From assembly GCA_944372505.1 (NCBI GenBank), contig CALVZK010000001.1:213687-277686 (forward strand): a DNA stretch of 64,000 nt, written 5' to 3'. The first letter of the stretch is position 1. Each line of letters starts with the position of its first letter. The position numbers and the translations under genes are program-made. The notes below the pieces were generated by a model. That model was not told the DNA's origin. It was given only the letters and a program-made list of their open reading frames with translations, and searched no databases. This stretch comes from an uncultured Clostridia bacterium. GTDB taxonomy: Bacteria; Bacillota; Clostridia; Christensenellales; UBA1242. Positions 3,472 to 63,383 of this stretch are shown here, in pieces.

Positions 3472-3807
3472 TTAAAAAGCATTTATTGCATACATCATCA
3501 TGTCATTAACATTATTATTAGTTAAATAATAAACTAAAATTTTTCCTTCTCTTCTATATGAAACTAAATTTTGGTCTTTCAATTGTTTTAGTTGATGAGA
3601 TATTGTTGTTTGATTTATTCCTAAAATTGTAGACAAATCATTAACACACATGTTCATCATAGATAAACAAGTTAAAATTTTAATTCTTGTTGAATCAGAG
3701 AAATTTTGGAAATAATCTGCAAGTTTAGATATATCCTTTTCCCCGGGCATACTAGATAATATATCTCTTTTACTTCTCTCTGTTAATAATAAAAATTTTT
3801 GTTCCAT
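3472..3807 (-). CDS. ArsR/SmtB family transcriptional regulator
   Basis: DSTRIKIL...CVNDLSTILGINQTTISHQLKQLKDQNLV is a typical ArsR wHTH. Confidence 0.85.
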   Translation of the reverse strand: MEQKFLLLTERSKRDILSSMPGEKDISKLADYFQNFSDSTRIKILTCLSMMNMCVNDLSTILGINQTTISHQLKQLKDQNLVSYRREGKILVYYLTNNNVNDMMMYAINAF

Positions 3808-3952
3808 AAATTCTCCTTTAACATTTTAAAATTTTACATCATAAATAGTTATGTATCTGCAATAATATTTTGTCATATACTGAAGAAAAAAACAAAGTAA
3901 AATTTTTGTTTATTTTGTCAAAATATAAATGATTTTGTTTAAAGGAGGACAT

Positions 3953-4147
3953 ATGAGCAACAATACATTTTATATTTTATTTATTCTGCTTCTTTCAGTA
4001 ATCACTAACGCAACCGATACCAACTTAAATACAAATACCAATTTTTTGCTCCTACTATTACTTGCATTAAATGGTCAAAATTACAACTGGGGTTGTGGTT
4101 GTGGACAAAATACATGCCCGGGACAAAGCAATAATACATTCTTTTAA
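3953..4147 (+). CDS. small hydrophobic Cys/Gly/Asn-rich peptide (64 aa), possibly YjcZ-like sporulation peptide
   Basis: AAAGGAGGA SD then ATG 3953. Two Leu-rich hydrophobic stretches and WGCGCGQNTCPG. A clean terminator follows directly. Confidence 0.55.
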   Translation: MSNNTFYILFILLLSVITNATDTNLNTNTNFLLLLLLALNGQNYNWGCGCGQNTCPGQSNNTFF

Positions 4148-4155
4148 TATAAAAA

Positions 4156-4179
4156 CCTTGCCTATGCAAGGATTTTTTA
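4156..4179 (+). terminator. rho-independent terminator
   Basis: CCTTGC-ctat-GCAAGG followed by T6. Confidence 0.8.
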
Positions 4180-4374
4180 TTGATAAAATATATTTTAAAA
4201 ATTTCCATGGAAATTTTATTATTTTGTTTAAAATTGAATAATTACGCAAATATTAAATAAAATTAAAAAAAATAAAAAAAAATTGTAAAATCATTTTGTT
4301 ATTATTTTTTTTTATGTTATATTAAGTTTGTAATAAAAAAGCAAAACGCTTTTAAAAACAAAAGGAGGGATAAA

Positions 4375-4758
4375 ATGGCATCTTTATTGAATGTAGTTTG
4401 GAGTTGGAGCGAATATTTTAAAGATTACGGCTCTGAAGGAACAAGAGAAGTATTGAATGAGGTTTTCAGTATTATATCTATTGTACTTTGGGTGGTTCTT
4501 GGTATAGTTGGTGCGATTGGTGCTATTTACGCAATTTATCTAGGTGTACAACTTGCCAGAGCCGATGAACAAGGAAAAAGAGATGATGCAAAGAAACACT
4601 TAATTACAGTTATTATCGCTGTTGGTGTTACACTTGCTTTAATTTTAGTATTTAACACATTCTTACCAGCACTATTATCAGCATTTAACGTTAAAGACAG
4701 TGCTGGAGAATTTGAAGACCCAACTTTAATAACACCCATAGTTTCTCTCCTTAAATAA
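4375..4758 (+). CDS. two-TM hairpin membrane protein, paralog A (VirB2/TrbC-pilin-like topology)
   Basis: AAGGAGGG SD. TM-(LARADEQGKRDDAKKH)-TM layout. Clear paralogy with the 4934..5251 product. Confidence 0.7.
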   Translation: MASLLNVVWSWSEYFKDYGSEGTREVLNEVFSIISIVLWVVLGIVGAIGAIYAIYLGVQLARADEQGKRDDAKKHLITVIIAVGVTLALILVFNTFLPALLSAFNVKDSAGEFEDPTLITPIVSLLK

Positions 4759-20800: not shown

Positions 20801-23119
20801 GGCAATGGTGAAATTTATCAAATAACTGAATATGATGGATCTATCACTTACATATCTAATGAAACCTTAAAGTTCTCATTTAACAAACTTCTTTATAATA
20901 TTTCTATATTTAATCAAAACAATCAAGATATTACTCAAAATATGATTGTTGTTGACAATCCTGCTACAAATATTTCTTACTATCTATTTGAACCAACAAC
21001 AGATAATATATGGAATGATTATTATAAAATTGTAATTTCTGATAGCGAAACTATGCTAGAAATTGATACCCTACACCTAAGATTATATTATGTTCTACCA
21101 TTTATTACTGATCTTTATAACGAAGTCTCAAATGGAGGAATACTTTTTAGCGACAACCGTTCACAACCATTAACAGATTTTGGAGATAGCGGTGTAAAAA
21201 CAGTTTATTTTGAAGGAAAACCTTATACTAACAATGTTAAATCTTTGACCACTTATTCACAAGTTATATCTTTAAGATTTAGAGATGGACAAAGTTATGC
21301 TAATGAAGGACTATTCTCTTATCAAGATGGTTTTAGTTACAGTGTCTACTTGTCTAAAGACAATGGTCAAAATTGGACGAATATTAATAGTTCTACTTCC
21401 GCTACAACAGCCTATACACTTAATGGTACTGGAACATATTTGTTACTTATAAAATATGACAGTGATGAAATATTTACAGATTTATGTCAAATTTACCAAA
21501 TTAATATTTTAGATAGCAAGGCTTCTTATTATTATATATCTGTTGATGGTTTAGAAGTAAAAAGAAACGATATTAAATTCACTGACCAAAATGGCAAAGA
21601 ATATGAAGTTAATTATATCGTTAGCGTAAACTATGCAGATAAAAATAATAGATTAGCGATCGTCCCTAACGAAGAACTCAATGTAGTTTGCAATCTTGTA
21701 TCAACACAAACAACTGGAACAGAAGTCTATGTCGAAATTTATCATTATGAATGTTCTCAAGCTAGAGGAGACTTTACTATTATTTATATCGAAGAAAACA
21801 ACAATTTTGTAAGCCAATTTACTTACGAAACTGCTAGCGGAACAGATGAAAACATTAAATCAAGTTCTTCTGTTGTTGTAGTTGCTAACAGCGAAACTGA
21901 AAGCAATTTTAATAAATTAAAACTTGAATTTACATCATATTATGGAATTAAAGAAAATTCTATAAATATAAAAGTTCTTAAATTGTTCAATGGAACATAT
22001 GTCGAAATATTCCCAACTAAATATACATCTGGAGATCTTTCTTATATTTATCTCGAAAAAGCAGGTTCTTATAGAGTTAGCCTATATGATTCTTGCACCC
22101 CTGCTAATGTTCAATTATTTAAAAATGGTGAGTATCTTGATATAATTTTCCTAAACTATACACCTTTTATTGTTACCTATTATACAGGAACTGGTGAACA
22201 ACAAGTAGAACATAAAACAGAGTTTGTTCAAAATGCTGTTTATAATGGTAATGTTGTTCTAGGTCTGACCAACCTATCAACTTATTATCAACTTGCCGGC
22301 TACCCTGTCATTTCAGTCAAACTGAATGGACAAAATTATAAAAATTATGAATCCAAAAATAATGTCTATACCTTCTCACAACCTGGCTACTATTCTATTA
22401 CATTTACGGCTACAAGTACAACAGGTGTTCCTATTAGACAACAAGAATTTAACTTTACAATTATAAATCAAAATGAATCAAGATTTGCCTATGAATTCCC
22501 TCAATTTGAAAATTATTATATTGAAAAAATTACTAAAGATGGAATTGATATCACTCAATCTCTAATCGAAATTTCAAATTTAAAAACTATTTCAATAAAT
22601 GGTAATAAATACCTAGCAGAACTTATAGTAAATTATCTTGATCAAAAAACTGGTGCTGGCAGATATGAAGTTACAATAAATACTAATGATAAATCTTATA
22701 TTAATACTACAGACGAGAAATTTACATTTAGTTTCTGGATTAACAAAGCTACTCCTCCTATTAACATCTCGGTTGCAGAAGGTCAAAGTACAACTGACAA
22801 TATAACAATCTCGTTTAATGTTCAAAACTTATACAATGCAATTGGTGACTGTTACTTTAAAATTGATAATACTAGACTTGATATAACAAGTGAAACAATC
22901 CCTACTTTAGGTAATAATTTAGTTTATACAATAGACCAAACAGGTACGTATTATGTACAAATTTATTCTATGAGTGGACATTTACTCTTCTCTTATAAAG
23001 TAACAAAAGAAGAACCTTTAAATGCTTTTGCAATCATTGCCATTGTATTGGGAGTTGTTGCCGCTGGCGCAATCATTGGAATCACAATTGCAATTAGAAA
23101 AAAACAAAAAATTAAATAA
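14816..23119 (+). CDS. giant (2767 aa) surface protein with N-terminal signal peptide and C-terminal TM anchor
   Basis: A single uninterrupted ORF. The N-terminus KKIFYSLIFSFALLSSICLGAF is signal-like. The C-terminus AFAIIAIVLGVVAAGAIIGITIAIRKKQKIK is a TM anchor with a positive tail. The body is Asn/Thr/Ser/Tyr-rich and beta-like. Confidence 0.8.
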   Translation: MIRVKKIFYSLIFSFALLSSICLGAFLKSNPNNTLNYSSAQTPTYGFISNALPTEGYFNISSTEDVGYVGNEAFLFNPNSNLTLNIAQNTIANGEEKNFAYIPSGQPQEGETAQEYYYFNFQNSLSLFYNLTNEQIASGQSGTNILTDTPITNFAKENENPFTVEGINITPEQFNLIFALNTALEECQISNEKITLNKEGIYTLQIPLTYYYTNNGGITFNSKSVTINYTFMIFNSTTYFNNTTGLQNILIDDNMQESTISTSETFSRYYFYNYSHYASVKELPKISYNPNLYRISISYTDIEKNTTFSTVVYENNVLTQYDVNGNVIDEENYFIYPVLDTNGNISIYFNDLGNYDISFEYLYISSSNETSTIYKLPFENLLGDVNIQNKNQRLYIYGYQLAYSDYSSLDPLTNQPEGVELKTLSIDQNGGKYENNADITSEVNECMGENGLHGNMSSPSQPNPYENLQTFALNYINSKNIIPVSTNQTPIKFLNNVNAVSTYSKIYNVSVNDDGKYTLDEGTDFQGFNQNTAGTYLYIIQYTYDNYMSTSGTLQQSYYHYQIFFFEVTNITPTITVLDESFNEIYNNGYTNQSVYVLNDAENNIYDAKITITLSAYDYSNKKHFFENVNVNDLNKYGMSYGIFNNPDNDEINGKYGFKIDNTSQYANAKFTVKISTLSSSSPGIKEFTIDTNEITGITTRNVQSSTGTQYIISSNFSQYNTNQSFIYSWNEKASGATTYGYIKRIDLESINYYSSQTSVSSLTNLLNYWIRQQIFPVSYKLNIANSSNWRDYQNSFNYSNVIDATYVLSTSGLYILEIYDKAGNSAFYLTLLDDSQPVFVQISSGMTTSYQILTNSQTISIPEDGTNISINWGNKKAIYLDNKSNYTEIKPYSATLNLSQAKENLQECLKNFFEASQNPDILNVSGAISVPTVSGEDVIETGISSYNGDYLLIDIKEKAYVKDTMSSTLSAYIGNSYDIDFIDDNGKAIEGTYIISLIDNSNTKIIGNDSIDYTNNPSSFITFNVTSDAARLSVYYEKDNQKTQLIFANYSLTGKLYEKDNSYTHNPDELENANLTDLTYKFSYYTPTNTDNLIKISYVPFAENGSILDSLTLKYYPYEKQNEENGDRNEFYYTISSSPTKTINIYSYNKSTVYDTGEELIFELALGSTDYPLAGRYVLTRQYTTENQNGETDTNSYSSYDYFRRTITFDVDDFNLISPTETITSNNYSSLESLVGGDIFVNMYSDSTDTSIQVTFPTYTNGLNTGSFYTKNNFTSEKETVNYSVSGDKLPISLYIPSVKYTKYNKVTKDENSINFENIKNEVLSYYGNAKVERGTDNLWYVIVEGVTDGNAFTTEQDAYNYLYNSLTIEEYNIKANIVANVNGTKYYTTNGTSVNGFLQFFEADEKYNIINNTPIEYFYEEGNYEITISQASNLGNLSSFYSIYKFGFEIISQKPDFDIIGSDGYLLQEVGSTNTYYTNSDMLTIQWEIPTSIYKAKIDESAITITSTEGTILPSEIDTSSSTIHSFTIDTSTLTHSTRPNPALTITMQYEGFNSKYYQKVTKTIYFDISAPTANLVNLMALTENATSGTFTQNFQQLSMRRYFDNNHQEISISSLNDISNMSYSYSMNTGYFKYYSYNVNEDFFYKTLMETINNSYLNNYNTQYIYYREIASLDSYNQVDKDSFSTNSYTLLINSSDLGLRRGYYEIVERDYAGNMCVYLVYLIDSKSQETNQDKYNIALNYKNSSHENNFEITNDEIVDGFNIYSNSGFTINSYNYKSDPWGMLYVKLAGQSVIRYLQSPWLENGYIYKMTISSSGFTLDSVPLSSIFENVNSSNNKHTLTLSDRTTGYANTIYLSIMDASINTQKIEDPNKTSVILNISVPSLSEYNSTTTSYVFPEKINIYRFDNIEGVASWNLIYIANQNPYGTWTPDSSTPSDSISFNTINSDHTLQIIINMGNYSTSKIKFEITDNFDNNTTIIQLANEIAYDQISGNGEIYQITEYDGSITYISNETLKFSFNKLLYNISIFNQNNQDITQNMIVVDNPATNISYYLFEPTTDNIWNDYYKIVISDSETMLEIDTLHLRLYYVLPFITDLYNEVSNGGILFSDNRSQPLTDFGDSGVKTVYFEGKPYTNNVKSLTTYSQVISLRFRDGQSYANEGLFSYQDGFSYSVYLSKDNGQNWTNINSSTSATTAYTLNGTGTYLLLIKYDSDEIFTDLCQIYQINILDSKASYYYISVDGLEVKRNDIKFTDQNGKEYEVNYIVSVNYADKNNRLAIVPNEELNVVCNLVSTQTTGTEVYVEIYHYECSQARGDFTIIYIEENNNFVSQFTYETASGTDENIKSSSSVVVVANSETESNFNKLKLEFTSYYGIKENSINIKVLKLFNGTYVEIFPTKYTSGDLSYIYLEKAGSYRVSLYDSCTPANVQLFKNGEYLDIIFLNYTPFIVTYYTGTGEQQVEHKTEFVQNAVYNGNVVLGLTNLSTYYQLAGYPVISVKLNGQNYKNYESKNNVYTFSQPGYYSITFTATSTTGVPIRQQEFNFTIINQNESRFAYEFPQFENYYIEKITKDGIDITQSLIEISNLKTISINGNKYLAELIVNYLDQKTGAGRYEVTINTNDKSYINTTDEKFTFSFWINKATPPINISVAEGQSTTDNITISFNVQNLYNAIGDCYFKIDNTRLDITSETIPTLGNNLVYTIDQTGTYYVQIYSMSGHLLFSYKVTKEEPLNAFAIIAIVLGVVAAGAIIGITIAIRKKQKIK

Positions 23120-29312: not shown

Positions 29313-31550
29313 ATGGGTTCAAACAAAAAAATTTTTCAATCATTAAAAGATAAAATTTATGAATTTAAAGGTCTTCTTAAAAATAAGAGCATTTACCGTA
29401 AACATGATTTTACAAAAGCAAGTACTATAAAAGAAGATAAAATTATTGATGGTCAAAGAAATGTAGATATGAAAAGAAATCTTGCAGAAAATAACTACTT
29501 AACATTCTTTGATGAGTATTGTAAGACTAAATCTATTAGTGATATTATTGATATGATTACTGGAAAAAATATTTTTAAATTCTTTTCCAATAATGGAGAA
29601 ATAAATGATGTAAAAAGAGCTATTGATTCAAAAAATCGTAAGAGCAGACAAAGCTCCGCTACTCCTTCTAAATTAACAATAGATGATTTAATTGATAATT
29701 TAGGCTCCAAATGCTTCTTGGCTATAGACGAAGAAAGTTTAAATCCAAAAACTCAACAAGCTTATCAGTTATTAGCAAGTGAAACACAAGCAATTTATAG
29801 AATTTTATCCTTTATAAACTCAAATATACAAGGTATTTACAATAAATGTGATCCAAACGCCCCAGAAGATTCTCCTAATAGTTTAAAGAAATTTCAAGAT
29901 CTTCTGAAAATTGTTAAATCATATGCTAAAAATTATTCTTCTTATCATGATTTTTATCTTACCGATATTAATGAATATTTGTTGGCAAACAAAGAGCCTG
30001 ATTCATATAATAAAGAAGACATTCTTTCTCGTGCTTATGAAATTTCTCAAATTAGATGCAATAACTTAGTTAATGAAAATATTAATAGCGATATTGCTTT
30101 AGTTAGAACTAGTCAAGAAATTTTAAAACAAGCAAAAGAAAGTACTGAAAATTTTGTAAGTCTAGTAAGAGATTCTCAAAAACTAAAAAAAGAAAACGTT
30201 AAATTGAATGAATCCCTAAAAGAAGTTGTTTCATGTATAAGTAATAATGAACATATATTACAAACACTACAAGATGTTTACGCAAAACAAGATAAATCTT
30301 GCGAAAAAAATATACAAAATCCTTGGATAGGAACTGGAGCAGATTCAGATGTCTATAAAAAAGGATATCAAAGACAATATCAATTTAAAAATGCTTTAGA
30401 AGAAATTGCTAAAGATTATGTGTACTTTGCTGTAACAAATTCTACTGACTCCAATACTCCTTCTAAATTGACAAATGTTGACGGAACAAGCACTTTTACA
30501 GAAAATGATTGTAAACTTTTTCATGAAAATGGCTCACCTATTGACCCTACTGAAGGCATAAATGGCTTAATTAGCATAATTAAATCTTATCAAAATGATG
30601 ATGAAGTTCAAGATAAACAAAACATTTTAAAAGTTTATTCTTTTGAAAATAAGGAAGGGAAGGTTATAGATAAACTTTTTACTGAAACTCAAATGAAAGT
30701 TATTAGTGAAATTTATAAAAAACTTAAAGATTACTATAATTCTAATGGCTCACTTAAAGAATTTGCTTATAAATCTGCTACTCACTCAATCCCTGAAAAA
30801 ACATTAGACAATTTACAAGCAAGTTTTGAAGAAGATTTCAAAAATAATACTAATTTAGAAAATTTAAATTTAGAACAAATTGAACTATTACATGATTTTA
30901 TTAGAGAAAATGAACCTGTTAAAGGTTTGTTTACAAAAGATGAGATTGTTAAATATGAAATAGATTCAAGATTAATTTATCATATGTACACTGATGCAGC
31001 TTCCCAAGAGTTATTAACGTTTATGAACTTAAAAGTTTTAGAAAATAGTATCGTTTTTGCAAATCATATACAAAATGATAATCGCAATTTAGAACAAAAT
31101 CTTAACATTCAAATTCAAGCTAATAATATTACAGCTGAAAATGTTTTAATAGAAGCTGTTACTATAAGGGAAAATCTTTCTGATTTAGTAGTAAATGAAA
31201 CAGCATTTTCTCAAGATGTTGCTAAATCACAACAAGATACAAAAAATCTTATTTCAAGTATAACAGAAGAAATGTCATCTGTTTCCGATTACGCTTCTTT
31301 GGAAACAGAAAGTGATTTCACTATGGAATCCAGTAATCAAATTACAACCCAAGAAACACAGAATAACGAAAGACTATCAGCACTCAATTCAGATGCAAAA
31401 ACTCTAGCAGAAAATTCAAATAAATCTTCTATAGTTGATCTTTATAAAAAATATCTTTCTCAAAAGCAAAAAGATTCTTTTGCAACATATATTAAAACAT
31501 TAGATCAAGAAACACTTGATTATTTAGATGCTCAAATAAATATGTATTAA
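29313..31550 (+). CDS. large hypothetical protein (745 aa), no signal peptide or TM
   Basis: AAAGGAGAAA SD. Uninterrupted ORF with a strong terminator after the stop. No recognised motif. Confidence 0.7.
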   Translation: MGSNKKIFQSLKDKIYEFKGLLKNKSIYRKHDFTKASTIKEDKIIDGQRNVDMKRNLAENNYLTFFDEYCKTKSISDIIDMITGKNIFKFFSNNGEINDVKRAIDSKNRKSRQSSATPSKLTIDDLIDNLGSKCFLAIDEESLNPKTQQAYQLLASETQAIYRILSFINSNIQGIYNKCDPNAPEDSPNSLKKFQDLLKIVKSYAKNYSSYHDFYLTDINEYLLANKEPDSYNKEDILSRAYEISQIRCNNLVNENINSDIALVRTSQEILKQAKESTENFVSLVRDSQKLKKENVKLNESLKEVVSCISNNEHILQTLQDVYAKQDKSCEKNIQNPWIGTGADSDVYKKGYQRQYQFKNALEEIAKDYVYFAVTNSTDSNTPSKLTNVDGTSTFTENDCKLFHENGSPIDPTEGINGLISIIKSYQNDDEVQDKQNILKVYSFENKEGKVIDKLFTETQMKVISEIYKKLKDYYNSNGSLKEFAYKSATHSIPEKTLDNLQASFEEDFKNNTNLENLNLEQIELLHDFIRENEPVKGLFTKDEIVKYEIDSRLIYHMYTDAASQELLTFMNLKVLENSIVFANHIQNDNRNLEQNLNIQIQANNITAENVLIEAVTIRENLSDLVVNETAFSQDVAKSQQDTKNLISSITEEMSSVSDYASLETESDFTMESSNQITTQETQNNERLSALNSDAKTLAENSNKSSIVDLYKKYLSQKQKDSFATYIKTLDQETLDYLDAQINMY

Positions 31551-31579: not shown

Positions 31580-31689
31580 CTGCTTGCTTGACAATAAATT
31601 TTGTTAGTGTTAATATAGTTGTATAAATTAATTTAATAGTTTAAACTAAAAAATTATTTTGTTAAAAAATATTAAAATTGAGGTGCATT

Positions 31690-34600
31690 ATGAATTATCC
31701 TTTTACCATTTCAAATAAAGTAGAAATTTTTGAAAATGGAGAAAAAAATTCTATAAAACAATCTATTACTATGCTGGACAATTCAGATGAGAAAAGCAAT
31801 ATTTTATTTGACTTTAAGGAAACTAAAACTAAAGATGGAACTTCATCTTCTAAATCAATTGCTCAAATAATTAATAAAGATGGTAAGACTCATTTAAAAC
31901 TCTCTCTAGCTGATAAATTGGAAAGTTTACCAGAAAATTTATCTGAAATATTATCAAATGAAGAAGGACTTGAAATTAATTGTCCCCCTCCTGCCATACG
32001 TTTAGAAAATAAAGGTTCTGAACTTGTTGTTTCTGTTTCTTCAAAAGATAAAAAACCTTATACCATTACTATTAGCACGTCGTCTATAAAAATACAAACA
32101 CAAGATGAAAGTGGAAAAAATCAAGATTTTAACATAAATCTTGATCCTAAAGAAAGCCATATTGATATTGACATACAAAGAAAAGTAGTTGAAGATTTGA
32201 TTGTTGGAGAGAATCCTCTTTACCATGATTATAAAATTCAAGGTAATACTACAAAAAATTCTATCCCTCAATCTTTATTATATCTCTATCTTCATGGTAT
32301 GGAAGATAATTCTAGTTTAGATTTAGGAAAATATAATATTACTAAATGTAGCTTCAATGATAAAGATGATCCTTTCTTTTTTATAAGAAGAGAAAACGAC
32401 ACTCTTTTATATACAAACGGAACTTTAAGAAAATGCGACAGATTCTTCTTTCAACATGATGTCGACAAGACAAGAACCCCTGCCCTTGTTATTGAAGGAG
32501 GAATAGGAAAAAATAGACCTTACTACAAAATTCCTATAAGTGATGATGAAAAATTTAATACCGCATTTGAATTAATGTTTCAAAAAGCACAACTAGATTA
32601 TGAAGATAAAAGAATTCAAAAAATTAATCCTCAAAATGGACCTCAAAAAATTTCAAATAGTACGATAATTGATCTTGTTGGCGAAAATATTTATTCTTTT
32701 AATGAAGATTTAAGGGAATATTCTATTCACAACTTCACATATAGACCAAAAACTTACACTACAGGTCTCAAAACTGAATTATCTTCTTCCGATGAATTAA
32801 TACCTGAAACAGAAACTCCTGAAGATGAAAAACCTGAAACAGAAACTCCTGAAGATGAAAAACCTGAAGATAATGACGATTCTGAAGGCGAAGCAGGAGT
32901 TATTGCACACAATGAAAATCCTCCAGATAATACAAACGATTTTGTTCCAGCTGAAATAATAGATGATAATCAAAACAACGATAACAACGACAATAATCAA
33001 CAAGATCCAAATAAAAAAACTCCTAAAAAATCTGCTAAAGAAAAAAATAGTTCCCCTATTCCACACAAAGAAATTGATAAAGAAAATGTTAAAAATGTTG
33101 CCGAATCAGTTTCATCTTCTATCATGGGTGTAGGAATTTGGTTGGGAATTTGTTGCATGATCCCAGGGGTCAATGTCATAGCTGCTATAATAGCTCTTGC
33201 ATTAGTTGTTTCTGGAGCTTTATTAAACACTTATGCAGATAAAATAGCAGATTTTAAGTTTAGATCAGCAGAAAAAAAAGTAAAAGAATACGAAGATGAA
33301 GCTAAGGACAATGCTAATTTTAAAGAAAATTTTATAGAAAATGAACATGAATTAGAAAAATTACATCAAATTTCAAATGAAAAAATCTCAAATCTTGAAA
33401 ATATGATGTCCCCTCCTGAAAACGGAGGTAACTTCGTGGCAAATACTTTTGCTCAAAATTATAATCAAAATGGTATAGGCTTTATCCACAAAGAAGATCA
33501 GCCTGAAAATTATGGCATAAAATCTTTAACTTCTATGGATTCTCTAAGTTTTAGACAATCTATTGTTGAAGATCTTAGTGCTATTAGAAATGAAACTAAT
33601 TCCGACGTTAGAAATGATTTGATTTCGAATTTTACACAAACTTATTTTACTTCTTTAGAACCTAAACAGTCTCAAAAACTTGCTGAAATGTTTTTACCAG
33701 AACATGACGAAGAACTTTCTCAATTTATAAAGGCTTTAAGTGAAACTAACAAAGCCCAGCAAGAAGAAGGTAAATTGTACGATTCACAAAAGAAAGAAAT
33801 CGAAAAATCTAATGAAAAACGTTTAAAATATCTTTTCTCTCATTCAGACCTTTCTAGAGAAGAAAGAGAACATTTCATAGATAGATATGGTTTTTCAATT
33901 TTAAAAAGTTATACAATTAACGATAATATCTCCACAGAAAAAATTGAGGCTTTAATAGACTCCTTACCTGCTGAACAAAGAGAATTTGCAGCCGCTAAAT
34001 TTTATGAAATTGCAAATGCTTCTAGGGAAAAAGTCAAAGATATTGCTACAATTGCTAAAGAAGAACATGAAAAAACTATCAAATTAGATAATTTAATACA
34101 TTTTAAAGAATCTATGCTTAAAACTTCAGATGAAAATTATTTTGCTTTCTTTTCACAATGTAAAGAAAATACCGCTGATTTTTTATTAAAATATACACAC
34201 TTAGCTTATTCTAAATCTACAGATAAATTAAAAAATAAGTTTTCGTTTTATAACAAAGACAAAACAACTCTTCTTCCTCCTAGAACAAATCCCCTTGAAG
34301 TTGTAGTTTTCCAAAAAATGAAAACTTTTATAGAAAAATCTACTGAAAGAAGTGAACTAACCGAAGAACTTATTAGTTCTCAACAACTTAAAAATGAATT
34401 TATTAAAAAATACTATGCTGAAGATATCGCAAAATTATATTTAGAAAACAAAACTAGTGACTTCTACACAGACGGAATTGCTCCTAACCCGGCAACATTT
34501 ACTTTTGCCTCAAAAGCATATTCTCAAGAAGAAATTGCAACTAAATTTGCTAAACAAGATTTAATAGACTTTATTTCCAAAAATTTCAATTTTGATAAAG

Positions 34601-36942
34601 AAAATAAAGATAAAATAATGAGAAAACTTTCAAAATCCTCTCTTACAGAACTTGTTTCAATGATAGAGTTAAATGAGGATGAAGTCGAAAATAGAAAATC
34701 TCTCACGATTACCATAGGTGACAAAAAAACTAAAGTTGAAAGATTCCCTTCAAAAGATGTCTCAAAAGAACATATTGACGCTTTTGATAGAGCAGAAAAT
34801 GCTTTCGCTTTTGGAAGCTGTTGTAAAGATTACGATAGTGTATATAATGAAAATATTGCTAGAGTTTTTGCTGATCTTTCAACATTAAATGGTACTGCTA
34901 ATCCAATAATAAAAGTAGAAGAATCAGGCAAAGGAAAAATTTCTTTTAACTATGAAATAACTAATGAAATTGGAGAAAAAAATAATGTTGCAATTCCCCT
35001 ATCATCATATATTTTAAAATATCCACAACTGAAAACTTTTCCTTTAGAAACACAAAAAAATATTATTGTCACTATGCTTTCCGCTGAATACAAATTATCG
35101 ACATTTAAACGTAAATCTATTGAAGAAAAAGATCCATTGAAAATTAGCCCGCTTCGAGAAGAGGAAAATCGTATTATAAATACTTATCAAATGGCATTAA
35201 CATTAAGTAAATCTATATTAAATGGTCAATATAGAGATGCAGTGTATCAGACAACTTTCGAACTTGGATTAGATGGCGCTTTAAGCGATGTTTCATATAA
35301 AGATGTCAAACTTGCAGCCAAAAACACAAATCAAGCATTAAATGGATTTATACATGTAGGACAAACGTTTGACTTGTTTGGTGAAGAAAATGCTAGAAAC
35401 CTACTTGAAATTTTTAACAATTTACATGAAGCTTCCCCGGAACGAGATGCCTCTGCTCTTGTTAGAGATTCTCTAGAAAAAATTATTGGGAAATATGAAC
35501 TTCCAAATGGCGAAAAATATTTAGATATCTTCAACCGACATTTCACAGATGCAACTTTTACAAAATCTGATAATAAAGATTTTGAAAAATTTATAGAAGC
35601 ACAAAGAAATACTATTGATAAACAAACACAGTTAATTTTAGATTATTACATTTCTTCTTTAGGAAAACAATTTGTTAAAAGAGAAATGAGACATCAAAGA
35701 AATGGTATTATTGACAAAACAGTCCCAACTTATGATAATTATCTAGAATTATTTTCTGAATTCGGACTTGACAAATCTGAAATAGCAAAAGTTTTAGCAG
35801 AAGCAGATGATTTTGAAAAAGGAATTGAAGAACTTATAAAAAGAGCTGGAATTTCAGATAAAGAACTTGAAAAGTTTAAAATTAAAAAAGATAAAATTAA
35901 AATTGGTCAATTTGATAAATCTACAAAAGAATTATATGGACTTTATAGAAAACAATATGATATCGATAAGGCATATTCTGAATATGACACCATTATGGAC
36001 ACACTGCTTAATGGCTCACCAGATAAAGATACTCTTGTTTCTTTGGTAGAAAGACTAGGTAATATAGATTCTAAACTTTTAAAAACATTAGGCATCAATT
36101 TAAAAGATGTGACTAAATTAATACCTAACGAAAATTTAACTAAAGAAGATTTAGAAAAACTTTCTGCCCTACATGAAAAAAATCATAAACTTTATATTAG
36201 AGGATCAACAAAATTAAAACAAGATATCATAAAAAATAACGAAATTGCACATGGCGAAACTAATTTAGATAAAAAATCTATAGAAGCTGATACAGAATAT
36301 CGTACATTCAAAGCTAGATCTTCAAAATTTAAACATGATTTTGGTATAATTTGTGATTTTATTTCTAAAAATCCTAAAAATAGCGAAATTAACAAAATTT
36401 TAGAAGCTTTCGTAAATGGAGATAATGAATTCTTTGAATTGAGAGACAAAATTGGTTTAAAGGATTTAGACGACATTAGTATTGCAGTTTTTGAAGCAGC
36501 AGGAATTGATTTAAAAAAGATATCTTCTTTAGCTAAAATAAAAAACAAATCAAAATTAATTAAAAAATTACAAATTTTAAACGATAAAATGCAAAGAAAA
36601 TTAGAACAAGAAGAAAAACGTAAGGAAAAAGAAGCTAAAGAAATTAAAACAAAAGCTAAAAAGGAAAAAGATGATAAAGCTAAAACAAATATTGGAATCA
36701 AAAATCATTCTTCTTTTGGAAATGCTTTATTAAAATTAGGTAAACTTTTCCAAAGAAAAGCAATCAAAGAAAGCGAAATACGTATTGAAAGAGAAGAGGC
36801 AAGAAAAGAAATTGATAGAGCTAAAATCCGAGAAAAAGAACATAGTGAAGAACATACTGAAGAACATGCTGAAGAACACGACGAGACTCACACTGAAGAA
36901 CCAAAAGAAGATGCTGAAGACGGCACAGAAGCTGGAAGTTAA
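31690..36942 (+). CDS. giant hypothetical protein (1750 aa) with central hydrophobic hairpin and K/E-rich helical C-terminal two-thirds
   Basis: GAGGTG SD then ATG 31690. Acidic PETETPEDEK repeats, a hydrophobic stretch GVGIWLGICCMIPGVNVIAAIIALALVVSGALL, and a C-terminal (EEHx)n His/Glu tail. Confidence 0.75.
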   Translation: MNYPFTISNKVEIFENGEKNSIKQSITMLDNSDEKSNILFDFKETKTKDGTSSSKSIAQIINKDGKTHLKLSLADKLESLPENLSEILSNEEGLEINCPPPAIRLENKGSELVVSVSSKDKKPYTITISTSSIKIQTQDESGKNQDFNINLDPKESHIDIDIQRKVVEDLIVGENPLYHDYKIQGNTTKNSIPQSLLYLYLHGMEDNSSLDLGKYNITKCSFNDKDDPFFFIRRENDTLLYTNGTLRKCDRFFFQHDVDKTRTPALVIEGGIGKNRPYYKIPISDDEKFNTAFELMFQKAQLDYEDKRIQKINPQNGPQKISNSTIIDLVGENIYSFNEDLREYSIHNFTYRPKTYTTGLKTELSSSDELIPETETPEDEKPETETPEDEKPEDNDDSEGEAGVIAHNENPPDNTNDFVPAEIIDDNQNNDNNDNNQQDPNKKTPKKSAKEKNSSPIPHKEIDKENVKNVAESVSSSIMGVGIWLGICCMIPGVNVIAAIIALALVVSGALLNTYADKIADFKFRSAEKKVKEYEDEAKDNANFKENFIENEHELEKLHQISNEKISNLENMMSPPENGGNFVANTFAQNYNQNGIGFIHKEDQPENYGIKSLTSMDSLSFRQSIVEDLSAIRNETNSDVRNDLISNFTQTYFTSLEPKQSQKLAEMFLPEHDEELSQFIKALSETNKAQQEEGKLYDSQKKEIEKSNEKRLKYLFSHSDLSREEREHFIDRYGFSILKSYTINDNISTEKIEALIDSLPAEQREFAAAKFYEIANASREKVKDIATIAKEEHEKTIKLDNLIHFKESMLKTSDENYFAFFSQCKENTADFLLKYTHLAYSKSTDKLKNKFSFYNKDKTTLLPPRTNPLEVVVFQKMKTFIEKSTERSELTEELISSQQLKNEFIKKYYAEDIAKLYLENKTSDFYTDGIAPNPATFTFASKAYSQEEIATKFAKQDLIDFISKNFNFDKENKDKIMRKLSKSSLTELVSMIELNEDEVENRKSLTITIGDKKTKVERFPSKDVSKEHIDAFDRAENAFAFGSCCKDYDSVYNENIARVFADLSTLNGTANPIIKVEESGKGKISFNYEITNEIGEKNNVAIPLSSYILKYPQLKTFPLETQKNIIVTMLSAEYKLSTFKRKSIEEKDPLKISPLREEENRIINTYQMALTLSKSILNGQYRDAVYQTTFELGLDGALSDVSYKDVKLAAKNTNQALNGFIHVGQTFDLFGEENARNLLEIFNNLHEASPERDASALVRDSLEKIIGKYELPNGEKYLDIFNRHFTDATFTKSDNKDFEKFIEAQRNTIDKQTQLILDYYISSLGKQFVKREMRHQRNGIIDKTVPTYDNYLELFSEFGLDKSEIAKVLAEADDFEKGIEELIKRAGISDKELEKFKIKKDKIKIGQFDKSTKELYGLYRKQYDIDKAYSEYDTIMDTLLNGSPDKDTLVSLVERLGNIDSKLLKTLGINLKDVTKLIPNENLTKEDLEKLSALHEKNHKLYIRGSTKLKQDIIKNNEIAHGETNLDKKSIEADTEYRTFKARSSKFKHDFGIICDFISKNPKNSEINKILEAFVNGDNEFFELRDKIGLKDLDDISIAVFEAAGIDLKKISSLAKIKNKSKLIKKLQILNDKMQRKLEQEEKRKEKEAKEIKTKAKKEKDDKAKTNIGIKNHSSFGNALLKLGKLFQRKAIKESEIRIEREEARKEIDRAKIREKEHSEEHTEEHAEEHDETHTEEPKEDAEDGTEAGS
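32803..32862 (+). repeat. perfect 2 x 30-bp tandem repeat (encodes PETETPEDEK twice)
   Basis: cctgaaacagaaactcctgaagatgaaaaa occurs twice in tandem, followed by a partial third copy. Confidence 0.9.
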
Positions 36943-59963: not shown

Positions 59964-61277
59964 ATGATATCACCAAAACTTGTAAAACCTCGAATTTTGT
60001 CAGGTTTTATGGAATTAGCACCTTGCAAACAAATCATCTTCAATAAAATGATAGATATAATTACAAAAACTTATGAAAATGCTTGTTTTGTTCCGCTAGA
60101 TACTCCAATCTTAGAATTAAGCGAAATTCTTTTGGCTAAATCTGGAGGTGAAATAGATAAGGAAGTTTATCATTTCAATAAAGGAGATAACGACCTTTGT
60201 ATGAGGTATGACTTAACAGTTCCTCTTGCTAGGCATGTTGCCATGAATAGTGAGGCTATCTCTTTCCCGTTTAAAAGATATCAAATAGGTAAAGCCTATA
60301 GAGGAGAACGTCCTCAAAAAGGTCGTTTTAGAGAATTTGTTCAATGTGACGGAGATATTGTCGGATTAGAGGATTTACCATTAACTGCAGATGCTGAATG
60401 TATTTATATAATTAGCAAAATATTTAAAAATCTAAATTTAGATGTTTTAATCCATATATCTAATAGAAATTTATTATTTGGTTACTGTGAAGATTTAAAT
60501 ATTAAAGATACAAAAAGCGTACTTACTATTTTAGATAAAATTAATAAAATTGGTAAAGATAATGCCAAAAACGAATTGCTAAAATTAAATTTATCTGAAA
60601 CTAATTGTGAAAAACTTTTGTATATTATTTCTCTAAATGGAAACTTTCAAGATACAATAGATAAATTAACACCATTATCACAAAACCAAACTTATATATT
60701 AGGACTCAATCAAATAAAAGAACTTTATAGATATATTAAAGCTTATGAGATAAATGAAGAACAATATTGTTTGGACTTATCAATTATACGTGGACAAGAT
60801 TATTATACAGGAACAGTTTTTGAAACATTTATGAAATCTCATCCTGAATTTGGTTCTATCTGTGGAGGCGGAAGATATGATAATCTTGCTGGTTATTTCA
60901 CTGAAAAGAAAATGCCTGGTGTTGGATTAAGCATTGGGCTTACTAGACTTTTTGATTTACTTGATAAAAATAACTTACTCCCCCCTATCGCCCCAACTAA
61001 TACAAAATTACAAATTATACCTCTTGGCGATTATATAGAAGAATGTTTAAGCTTACAATCGTTCTTTTCACAAAAATTAAATTGTGAAGTTAATTATGAA
61101 AACAGATCATTTAAATCAAAAATGAAAGAAGCAGGCAAAAAACAAATTCCTTATATTTTAATAGTTGGAGAAAATGAGCATAATTCTAAAAAATATACTT
61201 TAAAAAACATGATTACAGGCGAGCAAAATTCTCTAACTAAAGAAGATTGTTTAATACAAATTAAAAATAATTTATAA
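59964..61277 (+). CDS. hisS: histidyl-tRNA synthetase
   Basis: Class II motifs: RYDLTVPLAR, YQIGKAYRGERPQKGRFREFVQCD, GGGRYDNL. Confidence 0.92.
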   Translation: MISPKLVKPRILSGFMELAPCKQIIFNKMIDIITKTYENACFVPLDTPILELSEILLAKSGGEIDKEVYHFNKGDNDLCMRYDLTVPLARHVAMNSEAISFPFKRYQIGKAYRGERPQKGRFREFVQCDGDIVGLEDLPLTADAECIYIISKIFKNLNLDVLIHISNRNLLFGYCEDLNIKDTKSVLTILDKINKIGKDNAKNELLKLNLSETNCEKLLYIISLNGNFQDTIDKLTPLSQNQTYILGLNQIKELYRYIKAYEINEEQYCLDLSIIRGQDYYTGTVFETFMKSHPEFGSICGGGRYDNLAGYFTEKKMPGVGLSIGLTRLFDLLDKNNLLPPIAPTNTKLQIIPLGDYIEECLSLQSFFSQKLNCEVNYENRSFKSKMKEAGKKQIPYILIVGENEHNSKKYTLKNMITGEQNSLTKEDCLIQIKNNL

Positions 61278-61313
61278 AAAAAGCACTCATAGTCTACACA
61301 ATTTGAAACTAGC
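61276..61313. repeat. left arm of imperfect inverted repeat bounding the FtsZ-like cassette
   Basis: AAAAAAAGCACT-14 nt-TTTGAAACTAGC. Both 12-mers recur as exact reverse complements at 63324-63360. Confidence 0.8.
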
Positions 61314-61324
61314 GGAATAATTAA

Positions 61325-61357
61325 CACTTTAATCAACTTTGGTTAAGGTGTTTTTTA
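61325..61357 (+). terminator. rho-independent terminator (likely hisS)
   Basis: CACTTTAATCAA/TTGGTTAAGGTG stem (two G.U pairs) followed by T6. Confidence 0.65.
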
Positions 61358-61485
61358 TTCTCTTAACCGCCACAAAAACAAATATTTCTGCAGTTGTCAA
61401 GGATTGTCGCAAAAGCGACATTTATTTTAACCTTGACAACAAAGAATATTCGTTTACCATAATAAAAAGAGAAGAAAAAAAATAA

Positions 61486-61532
61486 TAAAAAAGCGAAAGT
61501 GTGTTATGCTCTGTCAACACTTTCGCTTTTTG
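61486..61532. terminator. bidirectional rho-independent terminator (ends the minus-strand cassette operon)
   Basis: GCGAAAGTGT-14 nt loop-ACACTTTCGC flanked by an A-run and T5. Confidence 0.75.
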
Positions 61533-61554
61533 CTTTCATTTATTTGGTTGTAGA

Positions 61555-61612
61555 GTGTGCTTGTCTTCGGTGGAGCATTAGCTCTCACCGACTTGTATCA
61601 AGACAAGCACAC
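61555..61612 (-). other. long extended stem-loop in the 3' UTR of the FtsZ-like gene
   Basis: GTGTGCTTGTCT/AGACAAGCACAC (12 bp perfect) extended by TCGGTG/CACCGA and GAG/CTC. No U-run follows. Confidence 0.7.
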
Positions 61613-61630
61613 GTTTAAATGCCAAATCGC

Positions 61631-62362
61631 TTAATTATTGCTAAAATATTCTATAATTGGATTTAAATTATTCTTTTCGTATATAATGTTACATAAATTA
61701 TCATTTTTTAGTGTTTTTAAAATATCCTTCATTGATTTTCCTTCTATTTCCTGTGAATATATATATTTAATTACATTTGTTATGCTTAACCGCAACATTT
61801 CATCCACTTTGGCATAAACTTCAAGTATAGAAATCTTTCTAAGCTCAGGATTTTCAAATATTTTGCCTAGGGAAATCACTGCTAAACCATCAACAACCTT
61901 TTTCAATTGTTCAACGCAATCAACTGCGATTTTACACCTTCTCTTCCCTTCAAAATCAGGAGGACTTGTTGCAAATGCAATAGTAGGGATATGTAATTCT
62001 TTTGCCACCTCACAAACAACTGGTGACGCGCCAGAACCTGTTCCGCCACCAAGACCTGCCACAATAATTAGAAAAGAACAATCTTTTAACGCATCTTTTA
62101 TTTCTTCACAGTCTTCTTCTGCTGCAATTTTTCCAAATTTGGGTAAGCCACCAGAGCCCAACCCTTTGGTTGTCTTTTTACCAATTTTTACAAACCGACT
62201 TGCTTGTTCGAATTGAAAATTCCAACCAACAAACCAATCTGTGTTGATGGCCATATATTCAATATTTAGCGCTTTATTACTTCTCAAATTTTCTGTAATA
62301 TGTACTCCAGCGTCACCAACGCCTACAATTTTAATTTTAAAATTTTTATTTTGTTCTCCCAT
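61631..62362 (-). CDS. FtsZ paralog comprising only the N-terminal GTPase domain (243 aa)
   Basis: IKIVGVGDAGV, YMAINTD, GKKTTKGLGSGG and tubulin signature AGLGGGTGSGASPV align along the whole FtsZ N-domain through helix H7. The protein ends about 40 aa later, without the C-terminal subdomain or tail. Confidence 0.8.
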   Translation of the reverse strand: MGEQNKNFKIKIVGVGDAGVHITENLRSNKALNIEYMAINTDWFVGWNFQFEQASRFVKIGKKTTKGLGSGGLPKFGKIAAEEDCEEIKDALKDCSFLIIVAGLGGGTGSGASPVVCEVAKELHIPTIAFATSPPDFEGKRRCKIAVDCVEQLKKVVDGLAVISLGKIFENPELRKISILEVYAKVDEMLRLSITNVIKYIYSQEIEGKSMKDILKTLKNDNLCNIIYEKNNLNPIIEYFSNN

Positions 62363-62371
62363 TATTAATTC

Positions 62372-62941
62372 TCACAAAATATTTCTTAAAATTCTTGTTA
62401 GCTCGTCTACATACTTATTCTGATTTCCGCATGAAGGGAAGGAAGTATTAAAAGCATTAATATTTTCTGAATAACCACTCTCCAAAATCGCCGCAAAAAC
62501 TTTTTCCATGCAAGTTTTTTTTACGACAATAATATATTTTGGTGATAAAAGTTTAATTTCATTTTTCAAATCTGGTATATATTTATTTATAATTTCCCTT
62601 TTTTTACTCTTGGATTTAATAAAACCTATGGGTTCTTTGCAAACATCATACAGCCAACATTCCATTTCTTTAAATTTTGCAAGTGAAAAATCAATCCCTA
62701 CATTTTCAAAAGATTCTTTTGTATATCTGTATAGATTTGAATTCTTATCATAGAAGAAAGTTCCGCCAGATGGTCTACTTTCTCCAACAAACAAAATTTT
62801 TGTTTTGCTTGGTTTGAAATCATTTCGTTTCTTTTCAAATTTCTCTGATTCAACAATGTTTTTAAACAATAATGAGCTTTGCTCTAATTCTTTTACTCTT
62901 TTTCTTTCTATTTCTAAATCTAATAATTCAATACTTTCCAT
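62372..62941 (-). CDS. uracil-DNA-glycosylase-superfamily-fold protein (tentative) with N-terminal coiled coil
   Basis: ILFVGESRPSGGTFFY (motif A-like GExPG), WLYDVCKEP (like yiTNvvKC.P), LLSPKYIIVV and FPSCGNQ (motif B-like HPS), in the canonical order and spacing. Confidence 0.5.
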   Translation of the reverse strand: MESIELLDLEIERKRVKELEQSSLLFKNIVESEKFEKKRNDFKPSKTKILFVGESRPSGGTFFYDKNSNLYRYTKESFENVGIDFSLAKFKEMECWLYDVCKEPIGFIKSKSKKREIINKYIPDLKNEIKLLSPKYIIVVKKTCMEKVFAAILESGYSENINAFNTSFPSCGNQNKYVDELTRILRNIL

Positions 62942-62979
62942 TTATATCTCCTTTATATTTTACAAAATGCTTATAGATT

Positions 62980-63228
62980 TTAATCAGTCCTTTCAAAATT
63001 TGGATACGACTTCATATAACAACCTTTACCTTTGATAGTAACAATCTCACAACCATACTCACGAAGATAGTTTATATTGCGAGCGATTGTTTTTCTATTA
63101 CACTGTATTCCACAAAATTGACTTATTTGTTTTGCTATTTTTGTTTGATGTAACAAACATTTTTCAGAGCTTCCATATTTCAGTGCATCATAAACGTACA
63201 AAATAATAAGTTTTTTTGTTTTTGTCAT
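62980..63228 (-). CDS. stand-alone winged-HTH protein (HTH_11/YafY N-terminal-like, no WYL domain)
   Basis: LIILYVYDALKYGSSEKCLLHQTKIAKQISQFCGIQCNRKTIARNINYLREYGCEIVTIKGKGCYM. GGGAGG SD. Confidence 0.65.
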   Translation of the reverse strand: MTKTKKLIILYVYDALKYGSSEKCLLHQTKIAKQISQFCGIQCNRKTIARNINYLREYGCEIVTIKGKGCYMKSYPNFERTD

Positions 63229-63251
63229 TTTTATTTTACCTCCCTACTAAT

Positions 63252-63281
63252 ATTATAACATAAAACATGGGTCAAAATCAA
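63252..63281 (-). promoter_or_regulatory. extended -10 promoter of the cassette (TTGATT-18 nt-TGTTATAAT)
   Basis: On the minus strand: TTGATT (rc of 63276-63281), then TGnTATAAT (rc of 63252-63260), about 20 nt before the SD. Confidence 0.55.
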
Positions 63282-63293
63282 ACCATATAAAAA

Positions 63294-63323
63294 ATCTAAA
63301 CATATTTTAGTTTAGATCTTTTT
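63294..63323. terminator. insulating hairpin / bidirectional terminator at the upstream edge of the cassette
   Basis: ATCTAAAC-atatttta-GTTTAGAT flanked by A5 and cT5. Confidence 0.55.
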
Positions 63324-63360
63324 GCTAGTTTCAAAAAAGTTTACCCATAGTGCTTTTTTT
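63324..63360. repeat. right arm of imperfect inverted repeat bounding the FtsZ-like cassette
   Basis: GCTAGTTTCAAA-13 nt-AGTGCTTTTTTT, the reverse complement of the left-arm blocks. Confidence 0.8.
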
Positions 63361-63383
63361 ATTTTTTTCTTTTTTAAAAAAAT

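Follow-up and report, generated by a model that had tools for sequence, protein, structure and literature searches.

Inhibitors of FtsZ, such as SulA and the prophage proteins Kil and DicB, are frequently encoded by mobile elements and by stress or toxin modules, and FtsZ bottom-face mutants and artificial fragments serve as dominant-negative caps in the laboratory. According to published structures of FtsZ filaments, an incoming monomer uses its GTP-bound top face to join the growing end, which exposes the T7 loop. Fragments of the FtsZ interface inhibit the growth of E. coli, SaFtsZ Q48A still assembles with about six-fold lower GTPase activity and stabilised polymers, and published papers treat capping by MciZ and, separately, the toxin CbtA. 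Here, we analyzed a short FtsZ-like protein encoded on a 2,060-bp mobile element at positions 61289..63348 of a 64,000-nucleotide stretch of DNA (the window) from an uncultured Clostridia bacterium. This protein, referred to as the short FtsZ, is a stand-alone FtsZ N-terminal domain that has been captured and maintained by a cassette of gut Christensenellales-like Clostridia. Its function is read tentatively, with a probability of about 0.4, as filament capping, in which this product of a mobile element would attach by its GTP face to host FtsZ filaments at their growing end.

In searches of 8.3 million papers, neither an FtsZ made of the N-terminal domain only nor an FtsZ–glycosylase cassette was found described, and the truncated FtsZ paralogs that did turn up were all from Alphaproteobacteria. 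The paralogs of Hyphomicrobiales (A. tumefaciens FtsZ1 and FtsZ3; bioRxiv 10.1101/2025.09.29.679267) are likewise extra, shortened FtsZ copies outside the dcw operon, and overexpression of the truncated FtsZ1 blocks division. They are described as lacking only one or more motifs of the C-terminal linker and C-terminal domain (CTL/CTD) and as keeping the GTPase domain, and they are vertically inherited host genes, whereas the short FtsZ is cut within the globular core after H7/H8, occurs in Clostridia and lies on a mobile element. FtsZl1 (Makarova & Koonin 2010) combines a divergent FtsZ-like N-terminal domain with a coiled coil and an alpha-helical C-terminal domain, and lacks T6–H7. The short FtsZ differs from it in keeping H7, in being closer to genuine FtsZ than to FtsZl, TubZ or PhuZ and in having neither the coiled coil nor the C-terminal domain. 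In the TubZ/TubR type III partition systems and PhuZ, a tubulin-superfamily GTPase is also found downstream of a small helix-turn-helix (HTH) gene on a mobile element. Both tubulin domains are retained in TubZ and PhuZ, which polymerise, and their sequence similarity to the short FtsZ is marginal; the element described here, unlike a TubZ/TubR system, has no centromere-like repeat array and is not a replicon. The short FtsZ belongs with the tubulin/FtsZ superfamily and would be grouped with mobile-element division inhibitors or defence cassettes.

Compared with canonical FtsZ (TIGR00065; PF00091 plus PF12327), the short FtsZ has a homologous N-terminal domain, about 35–41% identical to genuine FtsZ (E = 1e-36 to 1e-53), with loops T1–T5, helix H7 and an unbroken tubulin signature, GGGTGSG, at residues 105–111. 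Its open reading frame (ORF) fills exactly the interval given in Table 1, from an ATG start to a TAA stop. Pfam Tubulin (PF00091) covers residues 9–168 (E = 9.4e-30), while FtsZ_C (PF12327) gave no match in Pfam. The NCBIfam ftsZ model TIGR00065 aligns through profile positions 14–209 of 353 only, with a score of 180 bits that lies below the 295-bit equivalog cutoff. In a sequence comparison with the PDB, the best 49 matches were all FtsZ, headed by 1w5f (E = 2e-36), and the alignments to FtsZ structures span residues 4–200, some of them reaching 225. The chain ends at residue 243, so that the C-terminal linker and the conserved C-terminal peptide are not present, and the equivalent of the T7 loop (about residues 207–216) lacks the catalytic residues. 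The gene lies on a mobile cassette instead of in the dcw cluster. By domain content, T7 loop, linker and C-terminal peptide, equivalog score and locus, the short FtsZ is not a canonical FtsZ.

An AlphaFold2 (AF2) model built on 71 sequences gave a predicted local distance difference test score (pLDDT) of 85.7 and a predicted template modelling score (pTM) of 0.87, with the order S1–H1 to S6–H6–H7 as in the FtsZ nucleotide-binding domain. Beyond H7 the model continues with two small helices and closes with a short strand. Foldseek aligned it with structures of the FtsZ N-terminal domain over about 195 columns at a root-mean-square deviation of 2.0–2.5 Å. The original prediction of an FtsZ-like product of 243 residues, running from T1 to H7 with an intact signature and missing the C-terminal subdomain and tail, is borne out by the ORF, Pfam, NCBIfam and AF2. 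The same prediction had named two ways in which it could fail. An unrelated Rossmann fold is contradicted by the PDB and Foldseek matches, which are to FtsZ. Truncation of a normal ftsZ by a sequencing or assembly error was ruled out: the region 3' of the stop (61270–61630) has no FtsZ-like coding potential in any frame, only stops and hairpins, so that a single indel cannot restore a full-length ftsZ, and relatives of the same length exist. At the C-terminus (window 61631–61660; columns 240–267 of the family alignment), a hydrophobic motif followed by basic residues is kept in part of the family, in variants such as IIEYF, FIEIF, YIDIFKK and MEFFKAK, with low pLDDT. It loosely recalls the membrane-anchor-binding FtsZ peptide DIPxFLR, yet does not follow the D-I-P-x-F-L-R consensus.

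The short FtsZ is a member of a distinct family. Searching 5.8 billion proteins returned about 20 clusters of short FtsZ, 201–248 residues long, with PF00091 only and identities between 97% and about 40%. No source gives any of these clusters a name, and full-length FtsZ (PF00091 plus PF12327) ranks only below them. A family profile run against 1.84 billion representative proteins recovered about 7 short clusters at 50% identity with 231–365 bits, clearly separated from ordinary FtsZ, which scores at most 198 bits. Among GTDB contigs (one genome per species), the gene is present in 17 genomes, all of them metagenome-assembled genomes (MAGs) of uncultured gut Clostridia or 'Christensenella sp.', with an uninterrupted ORF of 201–245 residues in each. 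The ratio of nonsynonymous to synonymous substitution rates (dN/dS) against the window copy is 0.22–0.50, about 0.35, and the short FtsZ is under purifying selection. Its ratio exceeds that of 0.18 for the middle gene of the cassette and that of about 0.1 for the HTH gene. Among near-identical copies, the corresponding polymorphism ratio (pN/pS) is fairly high, 0.65.

No phage or plasmid origin was supported: tblastn against phage and plasmid collections gave only matches of less than 40% identity to ordinary ftsZ, IMG/VR gave two weak matches, and the cassette was not found in any of these collections. Likewise, no 'Rosetta stone' fusion partners were found, the long high-scoring proteins P0186, P0188, P0190 and P0191 (731–840 residues) being tandem double FtsZ proteins with two complete, full-length units per polypeptide. 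Separately, four loci in Thermoplasmata MAGs (L033, L038, L041 and L048) contain ORFs of 282–295 residues with similarity to the first 185–197 residues of full-length FtsZ only. These may be other shortened, archaeal FtsZ-like proteins.

Residue conservation was compared between 20 short and 51 full-length FtsZ sequences. The short family keeps the T1–T5 glycines, N40, T41, D42, K/R66, P134, F137, E138 and R142 as in full-length FtsZ. Those facing the upper subunit and GTP (D42, K/R66, G67/G69/G71, the GGGTGSG signature, P134, F137, E138 and R142) are invariant or nearly so. Other positions are specifically altered. The T1 loop of the window protein reads GVGDAG, and the T1 box GDAG instead of GGGG had been correctly noted in the original prediction; at position 17, Gly in 51/51 full-length sequences is replaced by Asp or Glu in all 19 short members with a residue there. 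Position 43, Ala or Ser in full-length FtsZ, is Trp in 19/20 short members. Q47, which corresponds to S. aureus Q48, is Gln in 50/51 full-length sequences and Ala in 15/20 short ones. N24/N25 and N73, conserved in full-length FtsZ, are lost. The T7 residues N207 and D209 (E. coli numbering), also conserved in full-length FtsZ, are lost across the short family, in which the residues aligned to N207/D209/D212 are G/K, S/T and D/E/N.

In the window, the short FtsZ is encoded by the last gene of a three-gene, same-strand operon, following a small HTH protein and a uracil-DNA glycosylase (UDG)-fold, glycosylase-like protein encoded by the middle gene, c3 (Table 1). Only 9 nt separate the c3 stop from the short-ftsZ start, and at locus L002 the middle gene and short ftsZ overlap by 17 nt. 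Clustering of the ORFs around all family members returned the same arrangement: an HTH gene (82–109 residues), then either c3 (189–194 residues) or c5, then the short FtsZ. The c5 protein consists of a zinc ribbon and a GIY-YIG-like domain, and is sometimes split or reduced to the zinc ribbon. The order of HTH regulator, upstream partner and putative growth inhibitor is suggestive of a toxin–antitoxin module. Of all cassette components, the HTH protein is the best conserved.

By its predicted fold, c3 is probably a divergent UDG-superfamily protein. The Pfam UDG model gave E = 5e-5 and 23.7 bits, just under the 24.3-bit cutoff. Conserved motifs are LFVGESRPxxGxFFY, CWLYDVC and FNxPFPxCGxQ, in which the motif-A-like GESRP is present and motif B is atypical (FPxCG). 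The AF2 model (pLDDT 89.5) matches MUG, SMUG1, TDG and UdgX in Foldseek with E = 1e-4 to 1e-3 (1mug, E = 1e-4) and TM-scores of about 0.5. Glycosylases of the UDG family have an established antiphage role and are spread by mobile elements (PMC11078745, bioRxiv 10.1101/2025.10.29.685425). Like the antiphage glycosylases Brig1 and Brig2 of these reports, c3 would have a UDG fold, is AT-rich and linked to a mobile element, and has homologues near type IV restriction-like genes. Brig1 and Brig2 differ in being described as single-gene defences without mention of an FtsZ-like or FtsK-like partner. In PADLOC v2, none of the short FtsZ, c3 and c5 had a significant match, and what the HTH protein matched was no more than noise.

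Table 1. Features of the short-FtsZ element and its insertion site in the window.
Feature	Position	Strand	Basis
Short FtsZ, 243 aa: N-terminal GTPase domain, H7 (residues 179–206), degenerate T7/H8, 30-aa tail	61631..62362	-	ORF, Pfam, NCBIfam, PDB matches, AF2
c3 (middle gene), 189 aa: UDG-superfamily fold (MUG/SMUG1/TDG-like) by prediction, 40-aa N-terminal helix	62372..62941	-	Pfam, motifs, AF2, Foldseek
First gene, 82 aa: winged-HTH protein (HTH_11/BirA-N-like)	62980..63228	-	Pfam, NCBIfam
Promoter-like site TTGATT-18-(TG)TATAAT upstream of the HTH gene	63252..63281	-	Consensus match
Terminal inverted repeat, operon-proximal end (GCTAGTTTCAAAAAAGTTTACCCAT); 12-nt core GCTAGTTTCAAA	63324..63348		DNA comparison
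Terminal inverted repeat, distal end (ATAGTCTACACAATTTGAAACTAGC)	61289..61313		DNA comparison
Host-side left palindrome half (AAAAAAGCACT); overlaps the hisS stop codon, pairs with 63349–63373	61263..61287		Flank comparison
Host-side right palindrome half (AGTGCTTTTTTT...)	63349..63373		Flank comparison
Long conserved hairpin in the short-ftsZ 3' untranslated region; compensatory changes between cassette types	61555..61612	-	Folding, cassette comparison
Bidirectional intrinsic-terminator hairpin with conserved loop (TTGACAGAGCATAA)	61489..61531		Folding, cassette comparison
Conserved non-coding block with inverted repeat GTTGTCAAGG/CCTTGACAAC and a promoter-like site	61314..61488		Cassette comparison

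DNA comparison showed that the element carrying the operon is sharply bounded. It is 97–98% identical in eight species-representative genomes, with unrelated flanks in every copy. The ends are imperfect 25-nt terminal inverted repeats (TIRs) with a perfect 12-nt core, TTTGAAACTAGC. The same core also bounds a diverged 2.26-kb cassette of the c5 type at loci L015–L017, the FtsZ-like protein of which is 46–47% identical to the short FtsZ of the window. With its TIRs, sharp bounds and several unrelated sites, the element is a non-autonomous TIR transposable element resembling mobile insertion cassettes (MICs) or miniature inverted-repeat transposable elements (MITEs). No transposase or integrase is encoded inside it, no cognate transposase was found, and no empty insertion site was recovered. 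It shares with MICs and MITE-like elements the sharp ends, the imperfect repeats, a content of passenger genes only and the variety of sites. It differs in that no target-site duplication is seen, no direct repeat flanking the copies, and in that insertion seems aimed at the loops of terminator-like palindromes. The protein, an FtsZ paralog in the original prediction, is not simply a host paralog but the cargo of a small mobile cassette with a glycosylase-like or nuclease-like gene.

The context in the window is core-chromosomal, in the order gyrB, gyrA, a UvrD-like helicase gene, hisS, the element and uvrC. Insertion took place directly after the hisS stop codon, with AAAAAAGCACT on one side of the element and AGTGCTTTTTT on the other. 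Six of the nine copies for which both flanks were available split a palindrome of the form A-tract/stem...stem/T-tract, which suggests that the element inserts into the loops of intrinsic-terminator-like hairpins. The split palindrome is also seen in the flanks of L006, L007, L009, L015 and L017. No tRNA lies near the element. At L016 (8683–8770), just upstream of the full element, a miniature pair of TIR cores (TTTGAAACTAGC ... AGTTTCAAA) encloses a terminator-like hairpin, which may be a MITE-like derivative or a footprint.

The promoter-like site upstream of the HTH gene (Table 1) is likely to be the operon promoter, judging by its match to consensus. Two strong hairpins form 3' of short ftsZ, and the second of them (z = -7.2) is a terminator that is likely to mark the end of the operon transcript. 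About 340 nt of non-coding DNA follow short ftsZ; between cassette types they are conserved to the same degree as coding sequence, and the stems of their hairpins show compensatory changes. A conserved promoter-like site on the + strand (TTGACA at 61433, a 16-nt spacer, TACCAT at 61460) points at the terminator, and could drive an RNA of about 70 nt, at about 61467–61535, convergent with the short-ftsZ mRNA. Rfam gave only sub-threshold chance matches to the conserved non-coding block. Elsewhere in the window, three very large ORFs at 14816–23119 (2767 aa), 31678–36942 (1754 aa) and 29313–31550 (745 aa) matched nothing in Pfam at E ≤ 1e-5.

The wider associations of the cassette genes were also compared. 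The HTH family is tight, with 33/35 clusters at least 74% identical to the HTH protein of the window. In many contexts, the HTH gene and a 278-aa c5 gene (zinc-ribbon/GIY-YIG-like) form a two-gene unit without FtsZ, as at L072–L079 (HTH 3501–3746, 278-aa gene 3802–4638). At L080–L087, an HTH gene, a split c5 and DUF1810 are again found without FtsZ. These FtsZ-less cassettes lack the TTTGAAACTAGC core, and their existence makes the short FtsZ an optional third gene. Loci L002 and L019 show the reverse, an HTH gene, a zinc-ribbon remnant and the short FtsZ without an enzyme domain. At L003 (3355–6099), L004 and L013, c3 and the short FtsZ do not follow an HTH gene but a cpYpsA (SLOG) fragment, a gene with an RE_endonuc domain and a zinc-ribbon gene. 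In addition, a full YpsA-family gene is located at L003 (9760–10323), 3.7 kb downstream of c3 and the short-FtsZ variant. YpsA is tied to FtsZ and to cell-division inhibition in B. subtilis.

Homologues of c3 with about 50% identity elsewhere in Clostridia adjoin GmrSD, RhuM, DUF4238, Macro, integrase or recombinase genes. Twice, such a homologue is followed by an overlapping gene of 273–288 residues for a motor-only FtsK (E = 4e-24 to FtsK structures). The loci that combine a c3 homologue with an FtsK core are L066 (5001–6318), L067, L068 and L088 (4001–5838), and the pair at L088 adjoins a phage-type integrase and DUF4238. The pairing of c3 with motor-only FtsK parallels that of c3 with the short FtsZ, as both join the enzyme to the NTPase core of a divisome protein.

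As a filament cap, the short FtsZ would load GTP and use its nucleotide (top) face to bind host protofilaments at the growing end, where T7 is exposed. The next subunit could then not add, because the short FtsZ lacks the GTPase-activating subdomain and a functional T7 loop. With the filament capped, Z-ring assembly and division would stall. The replacement of Q47 by Ala, which resembles Q48A, would favor a long-lived cap. The protein would thus be a division inhibitor encoded by the element, with an outcome analogous to that of SulA, MciZ and prophage Kil/DicB. This reading agrees with the direction of filament growth in the published structures, and the division block by overexpressed A. tumefaciens FtsZ1 and the growth inhibition by interface fragments are precedents. 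It may plausibly be coupled to the adjacent DNA-damaging or defence enzyme as a built-in checkpoint or an arrest resembling abortive infection. SulA, MciZ, Kil/DicB and CbtA, to which the short FtsZ is likened through the proposed block of Z-ring assembly by end-capping or sequestration, are unrelated to FtsZ in sequence and fold. Moreover, SulA and MciZ bind the T7 or bottom side of FtsZ, while the short FtsZ would use FtsZ's own top face on the opposite surface of its partner.

The original prediction had proposed that a domain presenting only the nucleotide face could cap and poison FtsZ protofilaments. This is mechanistically reasonable in that the nucleotide face is conserved (the T1–T5 glycines, D42, K/R66, G71, E138 and R142) and T7 and the activating domain are absent. 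GTP binding is predicted, and we infer binding to host FtsZ, capping and a link to the partner enzyme. Retention of the short FtsZ at L002 and L019 without an enzyme domain supports a function of its own for the FtsZ fragment. Several observations weigh against capping. The change from Gly to Asp in T1 may bear on the predicted GTP binding, and N165, a T6 residue of the nucleotide pocket that is Asn in 51/51 full-length sequences, is lost in the short family. Two of the four longitudinal contact regions are variable or remodelled: in H1/H2, N24/N25 and Q47 are lost, Trp43 is gained and there is a 4-aa indel, and the H6–H7 loop differs in length by up to 13 residues within the family. No second, canonical ftsZ was found within the window or in the retrieved flanks of the family loci. 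Finally, the pairing of c3 homologues with FtsK, together with the presence of DUF1810 or nothing in the third-gene position of other HTH cassettes, fits an NTPase partner of the enzyme at least as well.

Such a partner role, in which the short FtsZ does not act on division and serves a DNA-targeting defence module as NTPase partner, sensor or decoy, is the main rival to capping and, although doubtful, nearly as likely. The protein would be a GTP-dependent switch or scaffold working with the upstream glycosylase or nuclease, or an FtsZ decoy that senses FtsZ-targeting phage proteins and licenses the enzyme. The tight coupling of the genes, with the short gap in the window and the overlap at L002, argues for it, as does a middle gene that is always of a DNA-enzyme type, either UDG-fold or zinc ribbon plus GIY-YIG-like. 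The additional RE_endonuc and cpYpsA/SLOG genes at L003 and L013 and the defence-island-like or mobile contexts of c3 homologues point the same way, and the two overlapping FtsK genes provide a parallel pair of enzyme and NTPase core. The antiphage role of UDG-family glycosylases, often borne on mobile elements, is consistent with it, and so is the evolution of the short FtsZ, faster than that of its partners as is often the case for conflict proteins. PMC13423816 reports an immune system that is triggered when FtsZ is bound by a phage protein. Nevertheless, no PADLOC model was matched, and no way is known in which an isolated FtsZ N-terminal domain could hydrolyse GTP or signal when a T7 donor is lacking. 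L002 and L019 have lost the enzyme domain and still keep the short FtsZ, and the unit of HTH and nuclease occurs without FtsZ, which implies that the enzyme does not need it. A broader form of the decoy idea is unlikely, namely that divisome NTPase cores, the FtsZ N-terminal domain here and motor-only FtsK in the sister modules, have a decoy or guard role in mobile immune cassettes. A phage protein that attacks the divisome would bind the decoy and so license the adjacent glycosylase or nuclease, a form of 'integrated decoy' immunity.

It is quite improbable that the short FtsZ caps or poisons a TubZ/PhuZ-type homologue of phages or plasmids as a weapon against mobile elements. The defence-like context and a weak PhuZ match in PHROGs, the only match there (E = 2.5e-5), would fit this, and the variable contact regions could reflect diverse targets, but the sequence is far nearer to cellular FtsZ than to PhuZ or TubZ, the longitudinal interfaces of the TubZ/PhuZ families differ from those of FtsZ, and no phage target of this kind was found. 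Positioning or partition in the manner of TubR/TubZ is barely credible. In such a system, the HTH protein would recognise DNA of the element, for instance the inverted repeats, with the FtsZ-like GTPase assembling there. A small winged-HTH gene upstream of a tubulin-superfamily GTPase does recall tubR–tubZ, and the conserved inverted repeats and non-coding block could be binding sites. The element is nonetheless a 2-kb, single-copy chromosomal insertion and not a replicon; it has no iterons, tandem repeats or centromere-like array, and its FtsZ is missing two parts that tubulin-type polymerisation requires, the C-terminal domain and the T7 loop. The Pfam Tubulin_2 match is insignificant (E = 0.14), and the HTH gene also heads cassettes without FtsZ. 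A decaying gene fragment or assembly artefact without function might be read from the pN/pS among near-identical copies and from the optional status of the gene within the wider HTH-cassette family. It is effectively refuted by conservation: an unbroken ORF of similar length is found in the 17 species-level genomes and the roughly 20 protein clusters, down to 41% identity, the GTP-motif residues are invariant, dN/dS at deeper divergence remains at 0.22–0.50, and the gene has no downstream C-terminal remnant and a confident AF2 fold.

The mobile-cassette context makes the short FtsZ more interesting than the protein alone suggested, and, with modest probability, the logic of the cassette is itself new. 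Irrespective of its cargo, a 2-kb TIR element that apparently targets terminator loops is unusual. The pairing with a glycosylase or nuclease, together with the sister module of c3 and FtsK, points to an undescribed class of mobile conflict cassettes in which an attack on DNA is coupled to the divisome, either by a built-in checkpoint or abortive arrest or by decoy sensing. If capping of host filaments is true, a natural, conserved and mobile 'top-face-only' FtsZ would show evolution using the dominant-negative cap trick, and the short FtsZ would offer a genetically encoded means of probing treadmilling and the polarity of FtsZ filaments in Firmicutes.

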